Source of the DNA: Candidatus Heimdallarchaeota archaeon
Lineage (GTDB): Archaea > Asgardarchaeota > Heimdallarchaeia > Heimdallarchaeales > Heimdallarchaeaceae
NCBI GenBank assembly: GCA_021399395.1
Contig: JAAFKJ010000098.1
Span: 1 to 15,022 of the forward strand
Reading direction: 5' to 3'
DNA: 15,022 nucleotides
The translations under genes were made by a program, and so were the position numbers. Shown here one piece after another: positions 601 through 14,528 of the stretch. The notes under the pieces were generated by a model that was not told the origin of the DNA, ran no database searches, and was given only the letters and a program-made list of their open reading frames with translations. Within the stretch, counting starts at the first letter, position 1, and the number at the start of each line of letters is the position of its first letter.

Positions 601-3600
601 ATGCGAAATATCATAGGTACTACAAAAGCAATTATTATTATCATTTTTGTTGCTAGTTCACTAGTTTATCATGAGATGTCATCACCTGAAAGTACTGTAA
701 CTAACCATCAGGTAGATGCAATAATTTCTCTCCAAGATATAATCAATGATGTTTCTTCTGAACCTATAAGTATGAATCAGAAACCAGAAGGAATTTTGAG
801 AACCACATATATCGAAGGTGACTATGAATTACAAGGTTTCTTTACTCATAATGATTTTGTAGACCTGGATGATGACGGGAATACTTTCGTTTTAGAGAAT
901 TTTGATAGTATGAAAGGTAAAGCATCATCAGCAATTGGAACTCAATTTTTCATGGATTCTTCTGAACCTCAAACTTGGCCTAGTTTAGTTGATACTTACT
1001 TCCCTTTGACAGAAGATGTTTCTCCATTTCGCAATTCAAGTATATTTACTCCAGTCTTCTTTGAATCCACTAATATAGCTGGTAAAATACATGTGCTTTC
1101 TCATATTAATACTCAATATTTTGAGCCTGTCGATTTCACAATTCGGGTACGTGTTTTTATCTTCAATCCAAGCACAGAAATTTCAACCGAAATCGCTTCA
1201 GTGGAGGAGATTCTTCCTGATGGATTGCTCATTTCAAATCAACAAATATTTGATCTAACACTTAATAATACCTACTTAATTCCAGCTGGAAATCGATTAA
1301 AACTAACCTTTGAGGGTAAAGTAAATGATTTGAGTGCATCAGCAGAAGTTTCCTTAAGCACAAGTGATAAAGGTTCTGGCCAATATTCTTGGAATATTGT
1401 AGATGGTGTATACAGCAACAGCTATTCGTTTGGAACTTACGACCAAGTACTTGGAATGCAGATTCAGTACAAAAGTGCAACATTTCCAGATATAGTTGTT
1501 TCAGGGATATCCAACTCAACTCTTTATTACGAAGAACAAGAAGTATTTATTGATGTTTCTGGAGCAATTAGTAGTTCCTATCGTTGGGATTTGGAGAGTT
1601 ATGTTTCTTTTAGTAATTCGACAAGTACTTTCCTCCCTACTATCGATGGATGGCACTATCTAGAAGTTAGGGCAAGTGATTCTTTTAATAACACTGCAAT
1701 AGAAATTTATGATATAGGATATGATTCTACAGAGAGTTCTCTTACTTTAAACAATCCAACAAACAATTCAATAATCCTAGCTGGTTCGTTTCTAAACTTC
1801 TCAACTTATGGAGCAAATGAACTCACCTATGAGTGGGATAACAATGGTACAATATTTGATCTGTTATCCATACCAGAATATAATGTTTTAACACCCTCAA
1901 TTGAAGGATACCATAATCTTAGTGTAATTCTAAATGATACTTGTGTATATGATGAGTATTTCTACATTTTTGGTATAGACTCCTCAGCACCTCAAATCTC
2001 TTTGTTAAGCCTGACAAATGATACTCTTCAAGCTTCAGGGAAGCTTTTAGAAGTTGAGATTACTGATTTCTCACCTGATCTTACCATAAACTACAAGTGG
2101 GATGATAATATCTTTCTTCCTTGGTTACCAAGTGAAGGATCAATTTATCGAACTTACATCCCTGAGACAGAAGGTTATCACAATCTAACAATAACTGCTG
2201 AAGACTCATTAGGGTGTATTTCCAATCGTTTTTATCGATTCAATGTAAGTTCGGAGACTCTTCTTATTGAGCTTAGAACTATGGTTAATGAATCTTGGTA
2301 TTTAGGGGGAGAAACTGTTGAAGTAACTATAAGTGGTACTAATGATACAATATTATTCAGCTGGAATGATACTCCTTTACAAGATGGAAACCCATTCATG
2401 TTTGGAGGAACAATTCTTACTTTATCTGGGATTAACTCATTACCTAACGATATAGAACGTTATCATTATTTGAAAATTGTAGTAGGAGGTATTGATAACT
2501 TTGAATATATGTATATCTTTGAGTTTAGGATAGATAATGAAAATCCTATAATTGATTCTAGTTTTCTTGATCTCACCGATCAGAGGTTCAAAAGTGGGGA
2601 TACATTCACTTTCATTTTGTATGATAACGCAACCCAAATAGCTGATCTAATTGTTCAAATTTCAATTGATGGAGAATCTAATATCACTCTAAGTTTTCCA
2701 TTTGAATTGCATCTTTCAATATTCACTGATGGAATCCATAACATAACCATTTATGTTAGTGATATTGCAGGTAATATTGTAACTGAGTTTATTTCTTTCT
2801 ACATTGATTCAACTGCACCTGATATTGAAATAATATACTTTGAAGGCCTAGTTTCTCTACCTAATTCTAGTCTTTATGCACCATCTGGATCAACCATTGA
2901 GATATCAATTGATGATGCTGATCCCTCCTATACAGCAACATATTCATGGAAAGGTGGAGAGTATCAATCGTTTAATGAAACGATAATACTGAATTATGAT
3001 GATGATTTTGGTATTCTGATTATTAATGCAAGTGATTCTTTAGGAAATGAAGAGATAATTGTATATGAGTTAACTCTCGACAGTCTCGCTCCCACAGTTT
3101 CCCTAGTATTTCCATATGAACATTCAAAAATAAATGAACATACAAGTTTAATTTTCAATACAGAAGATATTTCACAACAAACGATTTCACATCTTGACTT
3201 CCATTGGGATATTTATCCAAGTTACACTCCTGAAATTTTCCCAGACAGCAAAGGTGATTTCGATCTAGCCTTGTTACCTCTCTATACTACAGGTGAATAT
3301 GCAACACTTTCAATTTATGCAGTGGATATTGTAGGAAATAATCAAACCTACTATTTTGTTTTTGAAGTAGATCTGACACCTCCTGATTCTACATTATTTA
3401 TTTTTGATGAAGAAACAGGGGAATATCACGATGCTTTAGACTATGATTATATTAAGGTTGGAGAAGAAATCTGGTATAACATTAGCACATCTCCTGATCT
3501 TTCTACATTTATTTACTACTGGAATAGTGAAGCTGGAGAAATTCTTGACAGCCCTTGGATAATTCACGCTCCTACAGAAGTAGGATCACATAATCTAACC

Positions 3601-4959
3601 GTTATTCTTCGGGATTCCACAGGAGAAAGCACATCCCCTAATGAAATAGAGCTGACTATTACTTTTCTAGTAAAAGATGAAGGTTACTTAACCATCTTAG
3701 AAACAAGTGATCATCATTGTTATTATGGTGAAGATGCCATTATTGAATTAAATCTTAAGAATACTTCGATGGTAAATCTCGAAATTAATGAAGTCAATAT
3801 TAGTGGCTCTATATTAGATATTCTCCACATCTCTGATTTTAATTATCGTGTTTTCTTTCCCACTAATTTGCTTGTAAGTAAAGGTAATTATTCTCTGTAT
3901 ATCTGTGTTGAATCTTCATACTACTTCGGACAAACTAACGAAAGTTATATGTTTGAAATAGAGATCCTTCCAATACCTTTAGCTATGGAATTATCTGTAT
4001 CTGATACAGAAATCGTTCAAGGAAGTTCTGTTGTGATATCTGGAATTCTCTCCTATCTTAACGGCACTCCCATTGCTGGAGTAGAAATAACTTTCTTGAT
4101 TTATATTTATTACAAGTCAGATCAAGGTTCAGCTAATGCTGCAATTGAAGGTTATGATGAAATAATTTCACTGAGTGACATCACTGGAGTAACTGGAGAA
4201 GCTTCAGTAGATTATATTTTAACTAAGGAAATTGAACAAATAGCCGTATCCGCTACCTTCGAAGGATCTAGCATTCTAGATGGGATCTTTCAGGAGTTTT
4301 CAGAGATAATAACCACAATAAAAGCAGGACTATCACCAGTCATCTTATATTCGATTGTTGGTGTAAGCGTTTTTCTATTAGGATTAGTAGCTTTTATTGT
4401 CTATAAAGCAACTAAACGTAAACCATTTGAGAAATATCTTGATAAAGTTTCAACCAATGATTTAGTTTTGAAAATAAATGAAATCTGTCCTGGAGTTATT
4501 CTTAGTATATTTGATCAGCGTAAGGGTCCCGTTCCTCTCATAAGTGATCATTCTTTTGATTATGATTATGGAGGAAGATTAAGTGTTGGCACAGAAAATT
4601 TCTTGCTAAAGATTTGTGATCAAGCATATTCGACTTTGGGCTTTGAAGACGTACATCAAGGTAGAAAGACAAGTGCGGTAAACTTGCCTAATGAAGGTCT
4701 TGTAGGGTTTGTTCATGCAATACAACTAGAAAATAAGGATTCAAGAGGAGGGTTAGAAAATCTCTCTGTTATCTTATTAACTCAAGCAGATTATGGTAAT
4801 TGCCTTCTAGCTTACAGTGATTTTATCTATGATCATATTGATGATTTAGTATCTAAATTGAACTCAAAGAAAGGTTTAGAAGAAATCAGATCCCAGATTG
4901 AAGAAATACGCCTTAGAACAACCCAAGTTATCTTAGCTGGTATAGAAGATTCAAAATAG
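601..4959 (+). CDS. Large single-pass cell-surface protein: signal/anchor, beta-sandwich domain, ~8 Ig-like repeats, TM helix, cytoplasmic longin/uDENN-like domain
   Basis: Hydrophobic N-terminus (AIIIIIFVASSLV). Repeats of ~85 aa with Y-x-W-D ... G-x-H-x-L-x-(I/V)-x-A-x-D-x-x-G-N and IDxxAPxI linkers. Many N-x-S/T sequons before the TM. TM at aa ~1247-1268 (nt 4339-4404) followed by KATKRK. The C-terminal ~180 aa contain GVILSIFDQRKGPVPL and FVHAIQLENKDSRGGLENLSVILL. Confidence 0.85.
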   Translation: MRNIIGTTKAIIIIIFVASSLVYHEMSSPESTVTNHQVDAIISLQDIINDVSSEPISMNQKPEGILRTTYIEGDYELQGFFTHNDFVDLDDDGNTFVLENFDSMKGKASSAIGTQFFMDSSEPQTWPSLVDTYFPLTEDVSPFRNSSIFTPVFFESTNIAGKIHVLSHINTQYFEPVDFTIRVRVFIFNPSTEISTEIASVEEILPDGLLISNQQIFDLTLNNTYLIPAGNRLKLTFEGKVNDLSASAEVSLSTSDKGSGQYSWNIVDGVYSNSYSFGTYDQVLGMQIQYKSATFPDIVVSGISNSTLYYEEQEVFIDVSGAISSSYRWDLESYVSFSNSTSTFLPTIDGWHYLEVRASDSFNNTAIEIYDIGYDSTESSLTLNNPTNNSIILAGSFLNFSTYGANELTYEWDNNGTIFDLLSIPEYNVLTPSIEGYHNLSVILNDTCVYDEYFYIFGIDSSAPQISLLSLTNDTLQASGKLLEVEITDFSPDLTINYKWDDNIFLPWLPSEGSIYRTYIPETEGYHNLTITAEDSLGCISNRFYRFNVSSETLLIELRTMVNESWYLGGETVEVTISGTNDTILFSWNDTPLQDGNPFMFGGTILTLSGINSLPNDIERYHYLKIVVGGIDNFEYMYIFEFRIDNENPIIDSSFLDLTDQRFKSGDTFTFILYDNATQIADLIVQISIDGESNITLSFPFELHLSIFTDGIHNITIYVSDIAGNIVTEFISFYIDSTAPDIEIIYFEGLVSLPNSSLYAPSGSTIEISIDDADPSYTATYSWKGGEYQSFNETIILNYDDDFGILIINASDSLGNEEIIVYELTLDSLAPTVSLVFPYEHSKINEHTSLIFNTEDISQQTISHLDFHWDIYPSYTPEIFPDSKGDFDLALLPLYTTGEYATLSIYAVDIVGNNQTYYFVFEVDLTPPDSTLFIFDEETGEYHDALDYDYIKVGEEIWYNISTSPDLSTFIYYWNSEAGEILDSPWIIHAPTEVGSHNLTVILRDSTGESTSPNEIELTITFLVKDEGYLTILETSDHHCYYGEDAIIELNLKNTSMVNLEINEVNISGSILDILHISDFNYRVFFPTNLLVSKGNYSLYICVESSYYFGQTNESYMFEIEILPIPLAMELSVSDTEIVQGSSVVISGILSYLNGTPIAGVEITFLIYIYYKSDQGSANAAIEGYDEIISLSDITGVTGEASVDYILTKEIEQIAVSATFEGSSILDGIFQEFSEIITTIKAGLSPVILYSIVGVSVFLLGLVAFIVYKATKRKPFEKYLDKVSTNDLVLKINEICPGVILSIFDQRKGPVPLISDHSFDYDYGGRLSVGTENFLLKICDQAYSTLGFEDVHQGRKTSAVNLPNEGLVGFVHAIQLENKDSRGGLENLSVILLTQADYGNCLLAYSDFIYDHIDDLVSKLNSKKGLEEIRSQIEEIRLRTTQVILAGIEDSK

Positions 4960-5008
4960 TTATTCTTGTCTTACTTCTTATCCAATTTATTAGATATCAT
5001 ATGTCTAA

Positions 5009-5030
5009 TTTTCTTCTTTTTTTTCTTTTT
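5009..5030 (+). terminator. Archaeal-type oligo-T terminator candidate
   Basis: TTTTCTTCTTTTTTTTCTTTTT about 50 nt after the stop of 601..4959, between convergent genes. Confidence 0.45.
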
Positions 5031-5054
5031 ACTATTAAATAAAGCAATCCTATA

Positions 5055-5984
5055 TTATTTCTTCCTTCTCTTATAAACAATTACTGTTGAAGTAACGATA
5101 AACGCTCCTATTCCATATACCCAAGAATGAGCTACAACTAATACCTCGTCATAAGAATCAATATAGTATTTGAAGACACCTTCAGTCTCCACTTCGAAAT
5201 CACCAGTTATGTTTGTTGAGAATTTGTAATCATTATAGAACTCATATAGTACTCCTTGAACATTGTAAGAGTAGTATCTACATACTTCCTCTCTGTAACT
5301 AACTCCTGGATACAGTGAACCTTCATATACATATGAGATTCTGTAGTGATATCCCTCAAACTTCTTTCTCTGAAATTTAAAAGAGTCTTTAAATTCTATT
5401 TCAAACTCCTTGTAAGCTAATTCATAGATTTCATAATCAGTTTGAAAGGAGAAATTACTGCTTAAAACTGGTAGAAATGTAAATCCAAATCCTCTCCAGA
5501 ACATGAATAAATCAACATGGATTTCCATCATATTAACGGGAACACCAAGGTTCGAACTCATTAAATCTAAACTAATTGGGTCAACAAAACCTATTTCTTG
5601 TGTTATGTTATCATATCTGTAGGTAACTTTGAAACTCTCTGTCTCATTTTCATATAACCAAGCTGCACGATAGAGGTCATAACAAGCTTGACTTTCACAG
5701 TGGATCATCCCCATGAAAACAGTCAATTTATTTGTTCGAAAAGAAATCTCGTTTTCTTCACTTTCCACATCCCATATAGTAATCTCCTCATAATTTTCAA
5801 TCAGAGGATTTTCTAGATTGTAATTGTAGTGTGTATCATCCCAAATGTAAGTGTAAGTTTCTCTTAGAGGACCCCAGTATTCTTCTTCTTGGGTTGTGTT
5901 GGAATTAGCAAAAAAAGATCCAAATAACAAAAACACTAAAATTCCACACAACAACATATTCTGATACAAATCTCTCTTCCGCAT
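5055..5984 (-). CDS. Hypothetical secreted, C-terminally membrane-anchored protein (paralog A)
   Basis: N-terminal basic + hydrophobic signal (MRKRDLYQNMLLCGILVFLLFGSFFA) and C-terminal TM + KRRKK. The track starts at TTG 5993; ATG 5984 is preferred given the TATA box (TTTATA) at 6019-6014. Confidence 0.85.
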   Translation of the reverse strand: MRKRDLYQNMLLCGILVFLLFGSFFANSNTTQEEEYWGPLRETYTYIWDDTHYNYNLENPLIENYEEITIWDVESEENEISFRTNKLTVFMGMIHCESQACYDLYRAAWLYENETESFKVTYRYDNITQEIGFVDPISLDLMSSNLGVPVNMMEIHVDLFMFWRGFGFTFLPVLSSNFSFQTDYEIYELAYKEFEIEFKDSFKFQRKKFEGYHYRISYVYEGSLYPGVSYREEVCRYYSYNVQGVLYEFYNDYKFSTNITGDFEVETEGVFKYYIDSYDEVLVVAHSWVYGIGAFIVTSTVIVYKRRKK

Positions 5985-8090: not shown

Positions 8091-9272
8091 TTAACAATAT
8101 TTGAGTGGTGTTTGAACTTCTCCAGGTGTTCTTGTTTTCAAAGGATCCATAGTTTTACACTCCATCAAAACTACATCTTCTTCAAAGATGAATCTACCCA
8201 TTTTATCTAATTGATTTTTTACTTCTTCCAATAGTTCTTTTGATAGCTTTTCCAGAAGGAAGAATTTTATTATTGGTTTTTTGCTACTTATGAAATCCCA
8301 GATACCTTTGACTTTCCCATTAATCAATATCGTAGTTGTAGCATTTCCAGATCGATCAAAGATGTAATCATAGAATTTTTGGTTTACATATCTTGTTCGT
8401 TCTTTATATCCCATCATATAAGGATCTAAATCGGGAAGAAGATTGATAATCGCTTGATCAGGAATAGCTGTTTGAGCAAGTCTTTCCAAGTCTCTAGTAA
8501 GCATATACTGAGGGTTAAGAAGCCCTTTGGGGTCTATCGGGTTCTGGGTCGCATAATCCTTCAGTTTTTCAAGTGCGATTCTCGTTTCTGTTATAGTAAA
8601 ACCGGCCCACCATGCAATATCCTTCAGTGTAACTGGTCCAAAACATTCCAGATAATACCTCACTAATTTCGTTCTACTTTCCTCTTCTGAATATTCTTCT
8701 AAATTCATATCTGGAAAATACTCTTCGAAAGCTGAGTAAGTGTGTCTTCTATCTCTCCAGCTTTTGATGGGTTTGTTCCTGATTATTTTGAACTGATCAC
8801 AGGCAAGATTTACCATCGCTGAAATATTTTCACTGCTGTTGAGTTCCTTCTTGATTTCTGAAACAGAGAGATTTCTACCTTCTAGAACTTTGAGAATGTC
8901 TTCTACTAGTTTCTGATACTTCATTTCAGATACACCTAGATTGACTAGATAATCCACATGACGCTTTGCATGTTGTTTCTTCGTTGCTTGAATTATCCAT
9001 GGAACAAATTCCTTGTTATGTATGAAAACTGTCTTTCTAATGCATCGGATTTTTCCAAGATTTTTCTTGACATATGCTTCTTCATCAAGTTGATTTCTAG
9101 AAAAATTATCTATGCGATTAAATAATGACAGATAAGGAGTTGTTTGACTTGTACTATGCAATCCTCCAATATCTCTCGTAACAATCATAATGTTACTCGT
9201 TTTCGATTCAGCTGTAAGGTGCTGTTTATGAAGGATATATCGATTTATTTGTTCTATAGAGAACTTTTCCAT
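8091..9272 (-). CDS. HTH_42 / AlkZ-family DNA glycosylase (winged-helix DNA-binding domain protein)
   Basis: Family motifs IGGLHSTSQTTPYLSLFNR, RCIRKTVFIH, LVRYYLECFGPVTLKDIAWWAGF, LLPDLDPYMMGYKER and ILINGKVKGIW. The 393-aa length is typical. Confidence 0.85.
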   Translation of the reverse strand: MEKFSIEQINRYILHKQHLTAESKTSNIMIVTRDIGGLHSTSQTTPYLSLFNRIDNFSRNQLDEEAYVKKNLGKIRCIRKTVFIHNKEFVPWIIQATKKQHAKRHVDYLVNLGVSEMKYQKLVEDILKVLEGRNLSVSEIKKELNSSENISAMVNLACDQFKIIRNKPIKSWRDRRHTYSAFEEYFPDMNLEEYSEEESRTKLVRYYLECFGPVTLKDIAWWAGFTITETRIALEKLKDYATQNPIDPKGLLNPQYMLTRDLERLAQTAIPDQAIINLLPDLDPYMMGYKERTRYVNQKFYDYIFDRSGNATTTILINGKVKGIWDFISSKKPIIKFFLLEKLSKELLEEVKNQLDKMGRFIFEEDVVLMECKTMDPLKTRTPGEVQTPLKYC

Positions 9273-9426
9273 ATATTAGGTTAAGTTGAGAGATATTTAT
9301 TATTTTTCTGTTGAGTTTTCCAAATTTAGATGTGTAAATATGAATCGTGAAGATAGGATGATTGAAGAAGAATTTAGAAAACATCAAAAATGCAAAGAAA
9401 TTGAAAGAAATAGTAGAAAAGTAGTC

Positions 9427-9885
9427 TTATCCATTCTTTTCAAACTCTAACAACCATTTCTTACGATCTAATCCCCCTCCATAACCTACAAGTTCTCCAT
9501 CACTACCAATTACTCTATGGCAGGGGATGATTATACTCACAGGATTCTTTCCATTGGCATTTCCTACAGCTCTAACAGCTGTTTCCTTGCCTATTCTAGA
9601 AGCAAGATCTTTGTAAGAAATAGTCTCTCCATAAGGGATTTTGAGAAGTTCCAACCAAACCTTTTGTTGGAATTCTGTTCCAGCTGGTGCTATAAGGAGG
9701 TTAAACTGTTTCCTTTCTCTTTGGAAATATTCATCTGTTTGAGCTAGAGCTCTAGCTAGTACATCAGGTAAATCGGTTGTACAACCTTCTTTTTCAACGA
9801 AATTACAGCTATAAATGAATGTGTCATCACTTGTGATTTCTATAAAACCTATTGGAGAATCATAGTATGCTCTATATGTGTTCAT
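9427..9885 (-). CDS. ogt: Methylated-DNA--protein-cysteine S-methyltransferase
   Basis: YDSPIG, GTEFQQKVW, IPYGETISY, AVRAVGNANGKNP, active-site PCHRV, GYGGG, KKWLLEFE. Confidence 0.97.
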   Translation of the reverse strand: MNTYRAYYDSPIGFIEITSDDTFIYSCNFVEKEGCTTDLPDVLARALAQTDEYFQRERKQFNLLIAPAGTEFQQKVWLELLKIPYGETISYKDLASRIGKETAVRAVGNANGKNPVSIIIPCHRVIGSDGELVGYGGGLDRKKWLLEFEKNG

Positions 9886-10733: not shown

Positions 10734-11600
10734 TTATTCAATTCCTTTTATTGGAAAGACTATACCATATTCATCAAAGTATTTTATTAACTCCAACTTC
10801 TCTATCCCCAGATCTTTTGCAAAATATTCTACCCCAACTATTGTAATATGTGAATTCAGATCATAGTCCTTGTATCCTGGAACACGACGTGTTACAATTG
10901 TCGGGCCAAGGAAATCATGTTTTACAGAGGAGGTTCCACTCAGCGGTAAAATGAAATCAACGATTTCACCATCACTTTTGGTTATTATTGCACCAAATTT
11001 CTTTACAAGTATATCAAGAAACATCCTCATTGGGAAAAATTCCTGTTTGATAGATTTTACTATATGGTTGTTAATGGAATCACACATCAATCCACGTATT
11101 TTCTGAATCCTTGTTTTATCTCTGTATGATGAAGGTCCTCTAAAAACAAACTTGCGGTCACAAAAATCACAAAATAAACGAGCTACTTCCTCATAAGGTG
11201 CTCTTTTTGCCAATTTCATCATATATTTCACGAGACCAACGCTATTCTCATCGTTCTCTTTGTCTTTTATAACCTCATAAGCTCGAACCAACTGTTGAAA
11301 TATCATAAGTTCTAATCTGTCATTAGGATACCTTGTTTGCGTGCTATCTATCTTCTTTAAGTAATATTCCAGTTTTTCTGAATTTCCTTTTATTATGTAA
11401 TAAATCATCATCTCAGTGTATACTGTAAACAGTTCTTTTCTTACTTCAGACAACGAATTGGATTTGTGGATTTTTGCGATATTCTCAATTAGTGCTTCAA
11501 CATTGCCTTCTTCATCGTTTTCAAGCAAGTTTATAATTTCCTTTCTAACTCTCTTTGCTTCATTTATAGTTTTGATCTTTTCTGGTTGATTCTGAATCAA
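10734..11600 (-). CDS. Hypothetical protein: helical (TPR-like) N-terminal region and HicA-like C-terminal domain
   Basis: 288-aa ORF with a TTG start and a good RBS (GAGGTGA) just upstream. Amphipathic helices in the N-terminal part. The C-terminal pattern is described in findings. The domain calls are tentative. Confidence 0.7.
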   Translation of the reverse strand: MIQNQPEKIKTINEAKRVRKEIINLLENDEEGNVEALIENIAKIHKSNSLSEVRKELFTVYTEMMIYYIIKGNSEKLEYYLKKIDSTQTRYPNDRLELMIFQQLVRAYEVIKDKENDENSVGLVKYMMKLAKRAPYEEVARLFCDFCDRKFVFRGPSSYRDKTRIQKIRGLMCDSINNHIVKSIKQEFFPMRMFLDILVKKFGAIITKSDGEIVDFILPLSGTSSVKHDFLGPTIVTRRVPGYKDYDLNSHITIVGVEYFAKDLGIEKLELIKYFDEYGIVFPIKGIE

Positions 11601-11769
11601 TTTATCACCTCAATTGAAGTAAGAATCTACTTAATGTTCCAACTTAACAATAAAAGATTGTTTTTCAATTTAAAAACCTATTTCCGAATTTTTCATCATG
11701 CTTCATGAAAAACCTCTAATTATTCTTTACAGTCAAAACTTTTTTAATTGTTTCAACTTATCTTGATGT

Positions 11770-11960
11770 GATAACAATGTCAATCCCTGTGCTTTGCTTA
11801 TAGGTTCATGCGAGGTGAACTCGCGCTAATATTTCTAATGATCTGGAGTAGTAGCGGGTAGCTTACATTGTTGTCGGTTTCTTTCAGTTTTATTTCTGAA
11901 TCGAGTCTTATCAACAATTTTCTTACTTCTGCTACTCTTTCAGAGCTAAGTTAATCACAG
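11770..11960 (+). ncRNA. Putative structured RNA (leader or stand-alone ncRNA), family not recognised
   Basis: Closing stem 11787-11800/11947-11960 (12 of 14 positions pair), hairpin GCGAG-GUGAA-CUCGC at 11810-11824, and a ~100-nt imperfect hairpin at 11842-11944. Many G-U pairs favour the + strand. TATA-like TTTTAATT at ~11742-11749. Confidence 0.55.
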
Positions 11961-12008
11961 CATTTCCGAAACTAATAAAACAACACATGAGAAATAAGAG
12001 GTGAAATA

Positions 12009-12998
12009 ATGAGTACTAATCGCTATACCAAACTTAAATGGTATAGATTCAATATCGCAAGAAGAATAAGAAATCTTGAAGGAGAAGAACTAATAGCTGA
12101 GTTAGAGGATATTATCGAAGATATCAAGGAGAAAAAGCTCGACAAATTAGGTGTTTTCAAGATTCAGCTTCAAGAATTAGAGAACATGATTGCTGAGTTA
12201 AAAGAAAAACCTAAAGCTAAAGGACGTCAGTATGATCCTTTTTATATTCCAATTTCTGGAGATGGTCGCATTGCTCTTTTTGGTCTTTCTAATGTTGGTA
12301 AGAGCACTCTGATGAATGCTATAACCAATACCGATGTCAAAACTGGAGCTTATCTTCACACTACTAGAGAGGCTCTTGCAGGAACTTGTGAATATGAAGA
12401 TATTCGCATTCAAATTGTAGACTTACCCGGGTTCTTGGATTTCAGAGAAGATTGGAATACCAGCAAGCAGATAGTTCGAGTCACTAGAACAAGTGATGCA
12501 ATAATGATGGTTATTGATCTTTCTATGGACATAGATCGACAATACAACTTCCTTATGAAACAGCTGGAAGATTCGAAATTGATAGTTAATGGTGAGACTC
12601 CTTACAAGCTTAGTATTATTGCAACTAAAGGAGACTTAGTAGGTTCCAAAGAACGTTATCAAGAACTTCTTTCTAAAACTGATCTACCTGTTTGTCCTAT
12701 AACTATTAAATCTGAAGAATCGCTTGAAAAACTCAGAGAGGCGCTCTTCCAACAGCTTGATGTAATCAGGGTTTATACCAAAAAACCCGGTGGAAGGGTG
12801 GAATATGGTAAGCCCTTTGTACTTCCAGAAGGTACCATCGTAGCTGATGTGACCAAGAGAATTCATACAAGTTTTCTTCAAAACTTCCGATATGGAAGAG
12901 TATGGGGAACATCTGTTGATCATGAAGGTCAACATGTTGGTCTTGAGCATGAGCTTGCAGACAAAGATGTTCTAGAGATAGTAGTTTCTAGAAAATAA
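12009..12998 (+). CDS. DRG/OBG-family GTPase with C-terminal TGS domain (short variant)
   Basis: G1 GLSNVGKS, G2 YLHTT, G3 DLPG, G4 TKGD. The TGS region reads IRVYTKKPG...RVWGTSVDHEGQHVGLEHELADKDVLEI. RBS GAGGTGA at 11998-12004. Confidence 0.92.
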   Translation: MSTNRYTKLKWYRFNIARRIRNLEGEELIAELEDIIEDIKEKKLDKLGVFKIQLQELENMIAELKEKPKAKGRQYDPFYIPISGDGRIALFGLSNVGKSTLMNAITNTDVKTGAYLHTTREALAGTCEYEDIRIQIVDLPGFLDFREDWNTSKQIVRVTRTSDAIMMVIDLSMDIDRQYNFLMKQLEDSKLIVNGETPYKLSIIATKGDLVGSKERYQELLSKTDLPVCPITIKSEESLEKLREALFQQLDVIRVYTKKPGGRVEYGKPFVLPEGTIVADVTKRIHTSFLQNFRYGRVWGTSVDHEGQHVGLEHELADKDVLEIVVSRK

Positions 12999-13079
12999 TC
13001 TAGAACTCTTCTCCAATCTTTTTTAATGTCATTTTCTGTCCACATGTTTTAAAATGTGAAAAGTCTATATATATTCGGT

Positions 13080-14528
13080 ATGACTTCTATTACACTACAT
13101 GGAGCTGTTGGAGAAATCGGAGGGAATAAGATTCTAATTGAAACTGGTTCAACAAAACTCTTCTTTGATTTTGGTCTTAGTTTCGGCAAATTCGGTGAGT
13201 ATTTTACTCCTTATTTACAACCAAGAAGATGGAGTTTCGTCAAGGATTATATGAGTCTAGGTTTACTACCTGATTTAACTGGTCTTTATCGTCAAGATTA
13301 CGAAAAACGTTTTAGAGAGAGTACTAAAGAACCGAAATATGATGGTGTGGTTTTATCTCATCCTCATTTAGATCATGCTGGCTTTGTTTCTTATCTTAGA
13401 CCTGATATACCTGTCCACTGTTCTCCAGGTTGTAAAGGTATTCTAGAAGCTTTTGAGGCAACATCTTGGGGTTTTCATGAATATACTCACATTAAGGAAG
13501 CTTTCAAATTTAGGCCTGGTAAACGAGATGCTACAAAGATGGTAAAAGACAGAAATAGTGTCATTCCTCGAGAAATATGTAAATTCAAACCTTCTTTCAA
13601 AATTGATGATTTCACCATTCATACTTACCCTGTAGATCACTCTGCTCCTGGATCAAATTCCTTTGTGATTGAAACTACTGAAGGAAATATTGTCTATACT
13701 GGGGATATAAGATTCCATGGAAGAAAGGGGAATTTCAGCGATTTCTTTGTAGAGAAAGCTAAAACATTTGATCCTGTTCTAATAATTACCGAAGGAACAA
13801 ATATTGATTCACCTACTGCTTTTGGGGAGCTAGATTTACAACAAGCTCTTTTTCCATTAATTGATGAAATTACTGGTTTGGTAATAGTAAACTTCCCAGT
13901 AAGAGATTTCGACAGAATGAGATCATTTATCGAAGCAGCTAAACAAACAGATCGCTCTCTAATTATCAGTTTAAGACAAGCTTATACACTCAGGAAACTT
14001 GAAGAAAATGGTGTCACTAACATCCCAAGGGTGGATGAAGTGGGCATATTTGTACCAAAGAAAGGTTGGGGAGTTCATAATGATATTAACTATCCTATAG
14101 AAATCCAAATGCAAGATTATCAATCTTGGGAAAATGAATTCATTGAACATGATAATAGTGTTACAGCTGATGATATCATAGAAAATCCAGACAAATACAT
14201 CTTCCGATGCGATTTTTCAGAATTGAAGTATCTCTTTGATATTCAACCTCCAAAGGGTTCGATATACATCCGTTCTGTAACTGAACCTGTTGACGAAGAG
14301 ATGGAACTAGACCAAAGAAAAGCTGACAACTGGTTAAAGTTTTTTGGACTCTATCCCTATAAACAACTTCACTGCTCAGGTCATGCTTCAGGTTATGATT
14401 TACAAGAGATGATAAAGAAGATCAATCCTAAGAGTGTTATGCCTATCCATACAGAGAAACCAGCTGATTTCAGTAACTTACATGGTAACGTAATTCTGAG
14501 TAAACTAGGCGAAATACATAATCTCTAA
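13080..14528 (+). CDS. MBL-fold beta-CASP nuclease (RNase J-like)
   Basis: GAVGEIGGNKI, DFG, SHPHLDH, VDHS, YTGDIRFHG, ITEGT, HCSGHAS and PIHTE motifs. ATG 13080 is preferred over track GTG 13056, with TATA-like TTTTAAAA at 13047-13054. Confidence 0.9.
   Translation: MTSITLHGAVGEIGGNKILIETGSTKLFFDFGLSFGKFGEYFTPYLQPRRWSFVKDYMSLGLLPDLTGLYRQDYEKRFRESTKEPKYDGVVLSHPHLDHAGFVSYLRPDIPVHCSPGCKGILEAFEATSWGFHEYTHIKEAFKFRPGKRDATKMVKDRNSVIPREICKFKPSFKIDDFTIHTYPVDHSAPGSNSFVIETTEGNIVYTGDIRFHGRKGNFSDFFVEKAKTFDPVLIITEGTNIDSPTAFGELDLQQALFPLIDEITGLVIVNFPVRDFDRMRSFIEAAKQTDRSLIISLRQAYTLRKLEENGVTNIPRVDEVGIFVPKKGWGVHNDINYPIEIQMQDYQSWENEFIEHDNSVTADDIIENPDKYIFRCDFSELKYLFDIQPPKGSIYIRSVTEPVDEEMELDQRKADNWLKFFGLYPYKQLHCSGHASGYDLQEMIKKINPKSVMPIHTEKPADFSNLHGNVILSKLGEIHNL

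Follow-up and report, generated by a model that had tools for sequence, protein, structure and literature searches.

The stretch of DNA analysed here, contig JAAFKJ010000098.1 of the Candidatus Heimdallarchaeota archaeon assembly GCA_021399395.1 (15,022 nucleotides [nt] in full, hereafter the window), carries on its plus strand a structured RNA upstream of a gene for a DRG-like GTPase with a TGS domain. Judging from comparisons among related genomes, this RNA probably represents a new family of structured 5′ leaders of that gene in Asgard archaea, with a cis-regulatory role exerted through two alternative folds. Its secondary structure is conserved and covaries in the helices that we term P1, P3, and P4, the RNA is strictly linked to one gene in at least three families and in a second class, and a conserved alternative helix lies downstream of the core. 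The original prediction, made from the letters alone, had described an uncatalogued structured RNA under RNA-level selection. This much is borne out by the lack of a match in Rfam 15, by covariation, and by strand asymmetry, and the position upstream of a DRG-type GTPase is likewise maintained across relatives. The ~190-nt three-way junction that was drawn for it is not conserved; the conserved fold is a multi-helix junction of ~106 nt, closed by the predicted 5′ end of the transcript.

Conservation in the aligned upstream regions is concentrated in blocks and does not run along 190 nt. The blocks are a TATA-like box, an invariant UGAUAACAAUG, a hairpin CAUGCGAGGGGAACUCGCGCU, and a block UUAGUAGCGAGUAGUUUACAUUGUU, beyond which conservation ends and a T run comes next. 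Because GAUAACAAUGU (11770-80) is complementary to ACAUUGUUGUC (11865-75) and conservation ceases after the last block, we take the conserved unit to be an RNA of ~106 nt (11770-11875, plus strand; Table 1). These two strands form the closing helix P1, which encloses a variable region, the hairpins P3 and P4, and a G(A/G)GUAG strand (11856-61) that joins P4 to P1. Compensated variants of P3 include GCGAA/UUCGC, CCGAG/CUCGG, and GCGCU/AGCGC, and P1 occurs as UUACAC/GUGUAA and GUGGAC/GUCCAC; the loop of P3 is not constant among lineages. P4 begins right after P3 in every lineage, varies in length from ~30 to ~190 nt, and in other genera is built on GCUCUAAUU/AAUUAGAGU or CGCUAAC/GUUAGCG. A possible helix between the pyrimidine tract of the variable region and GAGU in the junction strand is 65.9% paired, shows no covariation, and is equaled by at least 475 of 500 shuffles. 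A pseudoknot between the P3 loop and the same tract was dropped on inspection by eye, the loop variants occurring without matching changes in the tract. Small open reading frames (ORFs) in the region span 22-40 amino acids (aa), none of them credible, and a scan for bacterial-type promoters and terminators, which is not relevant to archaea, picked out the P3 hairpin only.

The folding z-score that had been suggested as a check is favorable for the core, which reaches -33.4 kcal/mol (z = -3.46, with none of 200 shuffles as good; minus strand z = -1.34). In an alignment of 33 sequences from three families, fitted by a covariance model and so leaning towards structure, with sequences that are related to one another, 88.4% of 640 cells hold standard pairs, versus 32-50% when the partners are slid by 1-3 columns. 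Double-sided changes occur in 15 of the 20 pairs (37 cells), and not one of 500 shuffles attains any of five measures. Taking the helices one at a time, pairing is 85.8% in P1 (9 of 11 pairs doubly changed), 99.4% in P3 (2 of 5), and 81.7% at the base of P4 (4 of 4), where three long-P4 sequences are misaligned at the 3′ side and count against structure. RNAalifold, run on this alignment, recovered P3 alone. Within the genus (15 sequences aligned with MAFFT), the redrawn structure is 92% paired versus 26-59% in slid controls. Covariation among orthologous upstream regions speaks for P1, P3, and P4 as redrawn; the outer P1 and the apical helices of the original drawing are not conserved.

The letters of that drawing are exact at the coordinates given for them, and in essence it is the minimum-energy fold of 11770-11975 (-50.8 kcal/mol, z = -2.44, two of 200 dinucleotide shuffles as good). 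The bias towards an RNA strand, which had been read from its G-U pairs, is genuine, since the minus strand of the same interval reaches only z = -0.29. Across 15 same-genus leaders, the drawn structure as a whole is 64.4% paired versus 40-45% in slid controls, with large differences among its parts. The hairpin drawn as P2 (11810-11824, our P3) is paired in 100% of cases. The outer P1 (11787-11800/11947-11960) is at background with 50-53%, and UCUG/CAGA, AUUGUUG/CAACAAU, and the apical UUCAG/CUGAA reach 58%, 57%, and 40.5%. Within the long hairpin drawn as P3, a helix of GAGUAGUAG plus GGGUAG is conserved (76%), and the remainder is non-conserved local pairing; the conserved closing helix 11770-11780/11865-11875 is missing altogether. 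Because the long hairpin includes a conserved helix that competes with the core fold, the drawing corresponds to the second state of a two-state leader, not to the conserved element itself.

Known RNA families and repeats do not account for the element. Comparison with Rfam 15 gave no match at or above the gathering score in the whole window, and at E<=10 the sole match within 11550-12100 was snoZ194 (E 9.7, 16.4 bits versus a cut-off of 50), which lies outside the element and is noise. The view that it is not a tRNA is confirmed by ARAGORN, which reports no tRNA or tmRNA genes in the window. A dispersed repeat, such as a miniature inverted-repeat transposable element, had been named as a possible refutation; BLASTN finds a single copy in the element's own genome (2.8 Mb, 34% G+C), and the model described below finds one match per genome in 36 genomes.

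The linkage to the GTPase gene is strict. BLASTN against 40 relatives placed the stretch in 11 same-genus genomes (E<=1.8e-4), each time upstream of a GTPase orthologue on the same contig, except in genome G021, where an assembly break separates them. A covariance model from 14 genus sequences (R1) detected the RNA in 17 of the 25 genus genomes, always as a single copy, and at E<=0.1 it matched 33 of the 83 genomes of the class. From 33 matches a second model (R2) was built, which returned 36 matches at E<=2.4e-4 among the same 83 genomes, never more than one in a genome, plus two weak matches (E 0.37 and 0.86) that were treated as noise. Thirty-five of the 36 either adjoin the GTPase gene or occupy the matching end of a contig, and the last (G003) is itself at a contig end. 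By tblastn, 27 of 30 fetched loci are directly upstream of the GTPase, the exceptions being G013 (interrupted gene), G021 (assembly break), and G003 (contig end); in G079, G072, and G073 the RNA adjoins the GTPase by coordinates, and in G071 this was verified. The GTPase is present in 43 of the 83 genomes of the class, and genus genomes without it are also without the RNA. Six GTPase genes of genus g14 were missed by the models, yet inspection found the element before them, five with P3 as GCGCU-GUYGAGA-AGCGC and one with an altered P3 loop, all retaining the same P4 and junction strand. Among GTPase genes of the class with available upstream sequence, none was found without the element; those of G006, G010, and G076 begin at contig ends.

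Outside the class, 52 of 400 phylum genomes encode the GTPase. One genus of a second Asgard class likewise has the RNA before its orthologues, in G140 and G141 at E 3e-4 and in G142 at E 0.009 with filters off only; R1 with strict filters, run on 41 genomes of the neighboring class (G142 included), gave a best E of 0.52. It does not precede the orthologues of family f20 or the more distant copies in G135 and G137. A pattern scan of metagenomes returned 17 stretches, three of which are family members, two with the GTPase downstream and the third on a contig that is too short. A profile search of genome contigs with the GTPase alignment retrieved bacterial GTPases through the P-loop pattern and no useful locus. 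The closest protein homologues (57-88% identity) are labeled Heimdallarchaeota, Heimdallarchaeaceae, Hodarchaeales, and other Asgard names.

A conserved promoter and the lack of a strong second promoter in the genus would suit a position in the leader, although a U tract lies between core and ORF. The TATA-like box previously noted ~25 nt before 11770 holds up: together with the A-rich stretch ahead of it, it ends 22-25 nt before the first base of P1 in 40 of 40 related leaders. With a leave-one-out position weight matrix (PWM), the site in the window scores 14.7 bits, as against 4.5 for the top site of the interval that separates the RNA from the ORF. Twelve of 15 genus sites score 10-15 bits (G002 has 7.6, and G011 and G004 have -4.2). 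The best spacer sites in the genus reach 2.3-7.9 bits, and for random windows of 150 nt the median is 4.1 and the 90th percentile 6.4, so that by this matrix the genus has no second promoter above background in the spacer. Archaeal promoters usually link the distance of the TATA box to the transcription start, and because the distance of the box and the invariant T-G at the start of P1 fit this geometry, transcription would start at ~G11770. In the 45 nt that follow the junction strand, T runs reach five or more in 25 of 38 leaders and four or more in 36 of 38, mostly at offset 8-19; the corresponding figures for random genomic windows are 12% and 32%. Oligo-U tracts signal termination in archaea, with aCPSF1 cooperating with terminator U tracts, as outlined in PMC8716108. 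The Shine-Dalgarno (SD) sequence GAGGUGA before the start codon complements the 3′ end of the 16S rRNA identified in the genome. Five leaders (L162 and L165-L168, from G048 and G051-G054) contain a palindrome of the form TCTAATnnnATTAGATCTA in two places, on the 5′ side of P4 and again 50-60 nt ahead of the start codon; this palindrome may represent either a DNA operator or an RNA hairpin that is repeated.

The GAGUAGUAG:CUGCUACUC helix represents a conserved alternative to P1 and P4 and is incompatible with both, since it uses the 3′ strand of P4 and crosses P1. Part of the 76% pairing of GAGUAGUAG plus GGGUAG is trivial, with a purine-rich strand opposite a U-rich spacer, and the helix was therefore tested separately. 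For each leader, the best duplex between the P4-3′/junction window and the spacer up to the start codon was compared with shuffled spacers, in 38 leaders (G013 and G003, which have no intact spacer, G071, G082, and the other-class and metagenome members were set aside). A downstream complement with z<=-2 is present in 19 of the 38, against none for the reversed window and two for a 5′ window of equal length. It is found in most lineages and changes along with the strand: UUAGUAGCG has the downstream partner CGCUACUAA, GAUUAGUGGCGAAUAGAG has CUCAUUUGCUGCUGAUC, GGGUAGUA has UACUACUC, and GGGCAGU (G065) has ACUGCUC. In this last genome, GGGCAG replaces GGGUAG and is met by CUGCUC replacing CUACUC downstream. 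Enforced on whole leaders, the junction fold (state A) and the competing fold (state B) are near isoenergetic, B being the lower of the two in 20 of the 38; in the window, A has -51.0 and B -54.7, with an unconstrained minimum of -55.3. Sixteen leaders have a mean unpaired probability of the SD that is more than 0.1 greater in B, five have it greater in A, and 17 have similar values in both.

We propose that the GTPase mRNA has this RNA as its 5′ leader, which may act as a two-state switch. Transcription would begin at ~G11770, and the first ~106 nt would fold as the junction, with P1 closing it and P3, P4, and the G(A/G)GUAG strand inside. This state A would form first, just before the U-rich tract, which would serve as a termination or pause signal right after the core, and on average it would leave the SD less open. 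In read-through transcripts, the segment 11922-11937, 50-60 nt further on, would pair with the P4-3′/junction strand; the resulting anti-junction helix would cross P1 and replace P4, so that states A and B would be mutually exclusive, with B formed after read-through. An effector that holds state A would favor termination at the U tract and make the ribosome-binding site less accessible. Without it, the downstream segment would invade, state B would form, and the GTPase would be made. The GTPase may be its own effector, by way of the TGS domain or the N-terminus, in which case the outcome would be negative autoregulation. That the RNA has a single gene context points to a signal specific to this gene. 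As a conjecture, we regard the GTPase as the most likely candidate because the TGS domain is an RNA-binding fold in relatives and the first 25 residues are near-invariant and basic/aromatic. In this scheme the start site, the read-through step, the direction of regulation, and the effector are all inferences.

Several points weigh against this proposal. Covariation within the genus is thin, with two pairs doubly changed and 48-364 of 500 shuffles matching the observed values, and the fixed-register promoter PWM is uninformative outside three genera, where the register varies. In the window itself, the U tract is broken to U4, the 14-base-pair duplex (11847-62/11922-37) has z = -1.08 with 27 of 200 shuffles as good, and the trend towards a more open SD in B is absent (0.26 versus 0.28). 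This trend is weak in general, since 17 of the 38 leaders differ by less than 0.1 and the lineages lack independence. Pairing of the spacer directly with the ribosome-binding site has z near 0 and does not exceed shuffles in most of the 38 leaders. No resemblance to rRNA or tRNA that would suggest mimicry was found, ARAGORN reporting no tRNA and the model no second site in the genome. Mimicry of the sarcin-ricin loop was considered and rejected, the likeness being only nine of 11 letters between the 5′ half of P3 and the sarcin-ricin loop segment on contig C21, and the fold not being the same. Finally, the U tract could end all transcripts, leaving a separate small RNA.

Such a stand-alone RNA of ~110-120 nt, with its own promoter and a U-tract end, would act in trans, perhaps joining the neighboring GTPase in a ribonucleoprotein as its stable partner or cofactor, the mRNA being separate or the product of incidental read-through. 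We consider this unlikely, although it is the main alternative. The promoter is set precisely at the 5′ strand of a closing helix by which the two RNA ends are joined, as in many stable small RNAs; the U tract follows P1 at a fixed short distance (at least T5 in 25 of 38 leaders, at least T4 in 36 of 38); and the RNA co-occurs strictly one to one with a protein that bears an RNA-binding TGS domain. The A-rich spacer even offers weak TATA-like matches near the ORF, at 4.5-7.9 bits in the subgroup of the window. However, these candidates are at background, and their predicted starts would remove the conserved SD. The complement of the junction strand beyond the U tract is conserved and covaries, which would be purposeless if transcripts ended earlier, and the U tract of the window is only U4.

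Alternatively, the element might be a small-molecule riboswitch controlling the GTPase gene, such as a sensor of a guanine nucleotide or an alarmone. The classical layout of aptamer and platform is indeed present: the transcript has at +1 a junction-type fold whose junction strand and loop are invariant, and a competing helix comes after it. Most metabolite riboswitches serve several genes, though, and this RNA has one gene context, with 36 matches in 83 genomes and one copy per genome. It has no Rfam riboswitch match even at E<=10, and the P3 loop and P4 vary considerably among lineages, all of which makes a riboswitch of this kind improbable. It is very improbable that the conservation acts at the DNA level, through transcription factor operators around the promoter with incidental RNA folds. 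The palindrome TCTAATnnnATTAGATCTA, present twice in five g14 genomes, inside P4 and near the ribosome-binding site, would suit an operator, but the conserved blocks lie downstream of the inferred start, and helices with arms at least 85 nt apart keep their pairing through double-sided changes. The G-U pairs and the energy asymmetry between strands also indicate RNA, and with the model the reverse strand scores ~17-20 bits versus at least 100.

Table 1. Positions of the leader RNA, its flanking signals, and the downstream gene in the window.
Feature	Position	Strand	Remarks
A-rich stretch resembling a B recognition element, and TATA-like box (TTTTTTAA at 11740-11747)	11734..11747	+	Conserved position and PWM
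P1 5′ strand GAUAACAAUGU	11770..11780	+	Pairs with 11865-11875; T-G-A at 11769-71 invariant in the genus alignment
Variable region with lineage-specific hairpin "P2"	11781..11809	+	Poorly conserved except a C/U tract (UCCCU in the window)
P3 hairpin GCGAG-GUGAA-CUCGC	11810..11824	+	99.4% paired in 33 sequences
P4 hairpin	11825..11855	+	GCUA/UAGC base, A.G mismatch, UAUUUC/GGAGUA, loop UAAUGAUCU
Junction strand GGGUAGCUU, consensus G[A/G]GUAG	11856..11864	+	Near-invariant block across three families
P1 3′ strand ACAUUGUUGUC	11865..11875	+	Pairs with 11770-11780
U-rich tract UUUCUUUCAGUUUUAUUUC	11878..11896	+	Longest run U4 in the window
Anti-junction segment CUUACUUCUGCUACUC	11922..11937	+	Complementary to 11847-11862; core of the long hairpin drawn originally as P3
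SD sequence GAGGUGA	11998..12004	+	GAGGTG block before every orthologous start codon
DRG-family GTPase paralogue, 329 aa	12009..12998	+	Pfam MMR_HSR1 and TGS; G domain and C-terminal TGS, no S5D2L insert

The GTPase is a DRG-like paralogue and not a canonical DRG. The canonical architecture comprises a helix-turn-helix (HTH), a G domain with an S5D2L insert, and a TGS domain; in the 329-aa protein the S5D2L region is cut to ~35 residues and the N-terminal 75 residues are unmatched to an HTH. Its closest solved relatives, Rbg2 (7nrc, 5e-41) and Rbg1 (7rr5 and 4a9a), are matched over residues 76-196 and 232-324 only, and no NCBIfam equivalog attains its cut-off. Residues 1-25 stand out as near-invariant columns of the alignment, basic and aromatic in character. 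A canonical DRG of 370-390 aa is encoded elsewhere in the same genomes, so that the 329-aa paralogue is an extra copy, and its distribution is patchy. According to the account in PMC8629797, archaea may have one DRG only, and the TGS domain is an RNA-binding fold in relatives.

In some genomes the GTPase gene appears damaged while the RNA upstream is retained. One orthologue has an in-frame TAA (G016:C14:737-1714) and another is split into two overlapping pieces (G023:C209:17204-18174); each may be a pseudogene or an assembly error. In G013, a 646-aa ORF on the opposite strand (L173:392-2332, minus; G013:C4 about 3490-5430) breaks the GTPase ORF after about codon 9, the start codon reads ATT, and the RNA leader is intact. 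The ORF has a weak match to a Cas12f1-like TNB (TnpB-type) domain (24.1 bits versus a cut-off of 26.3) and is probably a recent mobile-element insertion that inactivated the GTPase gene. The orthologues of family f20 (L177, L178, and L179, from G179, G215, and G210) are without the RNA. In G179 and G210 an ORF of ~80 aa with its own SD precedes the GTPase gene, and in all three a conserved ~90-nt stretch starting CTTTGGCCGGATTATGATTCAA lies further upstream and may be a different non-coding RNA. Locus L039 (G037:C346) has no RNA element before a partial, 60%-identical GTPase fragment; by reading of the sequence, its upstream gene ends in a eukaryote-like actin C-terminus, as would be expected of Asgard DNA.

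Directly after the GTPase gene, the window encodes a 490-aa beta-CASP/RNase J-like metallo-beta-lactamase nuclease (13056-14528, plus strand). This nuclease lies beside or within ~2 kb of the GTPase in most genomes of genera g1 and g10 with a close orthologue; in G005, G019, and G023 it is on another contig or ~6 kb off, and in other genera it is 15 kb away or elsewhere. Five genus genomes without the GTPase are also without the beta-CASP nuclease. Elsewhere in the window, an AlkZ-like DNA glycosylase next to an O6-methylguanine methyltransferase (8091-9885, minus strand) forms a small DNA-alkylation repair pair, and 601-4959 encodes a 1452-aa protein with Ig-like and PKD domains.

Autoregulatory mRNA leaders are familiar from bacterial ribosomal proteins and from the autoregulation of archaeal ribosomal proteins. 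The RNA described here resembles them as a structured 5′ leader of one gene, with an RNA-binding, ribosome-associated product, one copy per genome, and an alternative pairing able to alter expression. It differs in showing no similarity to a presumed rRNA or tRNA target, in having a GTPase and not a ribosomal protein as product, in its Asgard lineage, and in that binding is putative. Few archaeal riboswitches with an expression platform are known, such as those for fluoride and thiamine pyrophosphate. With these the present RNA shares the junction fold that begins the transcript, the invariance of the junction strand, a downstream helix that excludes the first fold, and the U tract that comes after the closing helix; it differs from them in the absence of an Rfam family, the single gene context, and a platform without clear SD sequestration. 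The oligo-U tract at a fixed position after a structured RNA recalls archaeal U-tract termination as presented in PMC8716108; it differs in being only U4 in the window, missing in two of 38 relatives, and known here from sequence. Like the DRG/Rbg GTPases treated in PMC8629797, the 329-aa protein has an Obg-class G domain followed by a TGS domain, but it departs from them in its size, in the ~35 residues at the S5D2L site, in an N-terminus unmatched to an HTH, and as a second, patchily distributed copy. Full-text literature searches, whose scope was openly readable articles and not subscription journals or supplements, gave no account of this RNA or of any Asgard-specific regulatory RNA, and none is in Rfam 15.

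To our knowledge, very few structured cis-regulatory RNAs have been described in archaea. Clear boundaries, a conserved promoter, covariation, and a one-to-one tie to a gene make the 106-nt RNA and the 329-aa protein a compact system that lends itself to testing. It offers a route to post-initiation gene control in the archaeal lineage closest to eukaryotes and to the role of a second, trimmed DRG-type GTPase in Asgard archaea. If the GTPase binds the RNA, this element would be a defined RNA ligand for a TGS-domain GTPase. A bolder proposal, which we consider doubtful, is that the RNA is a dedicated sensor or partner of the GTPase, either an Asgard-specific riboswitch-like regulator that responds to guanine nucleotides or to the nucleotide state of the GTPase, or a stable RNA cofactor seated on its TGS/N-terminal surface. 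In the sensor form, if true, it would be the first riboswitch-like regulator specific to Asgard archaea. Eukaryotic DRGs are occupied by a protein partner, DFRP; in the cofactor form, if true, the closest archaeal relatives of eukaryotes would possess an RNA-GTPase particle in which an RNA is placed as DFRP is on eukaryotic DRGs.

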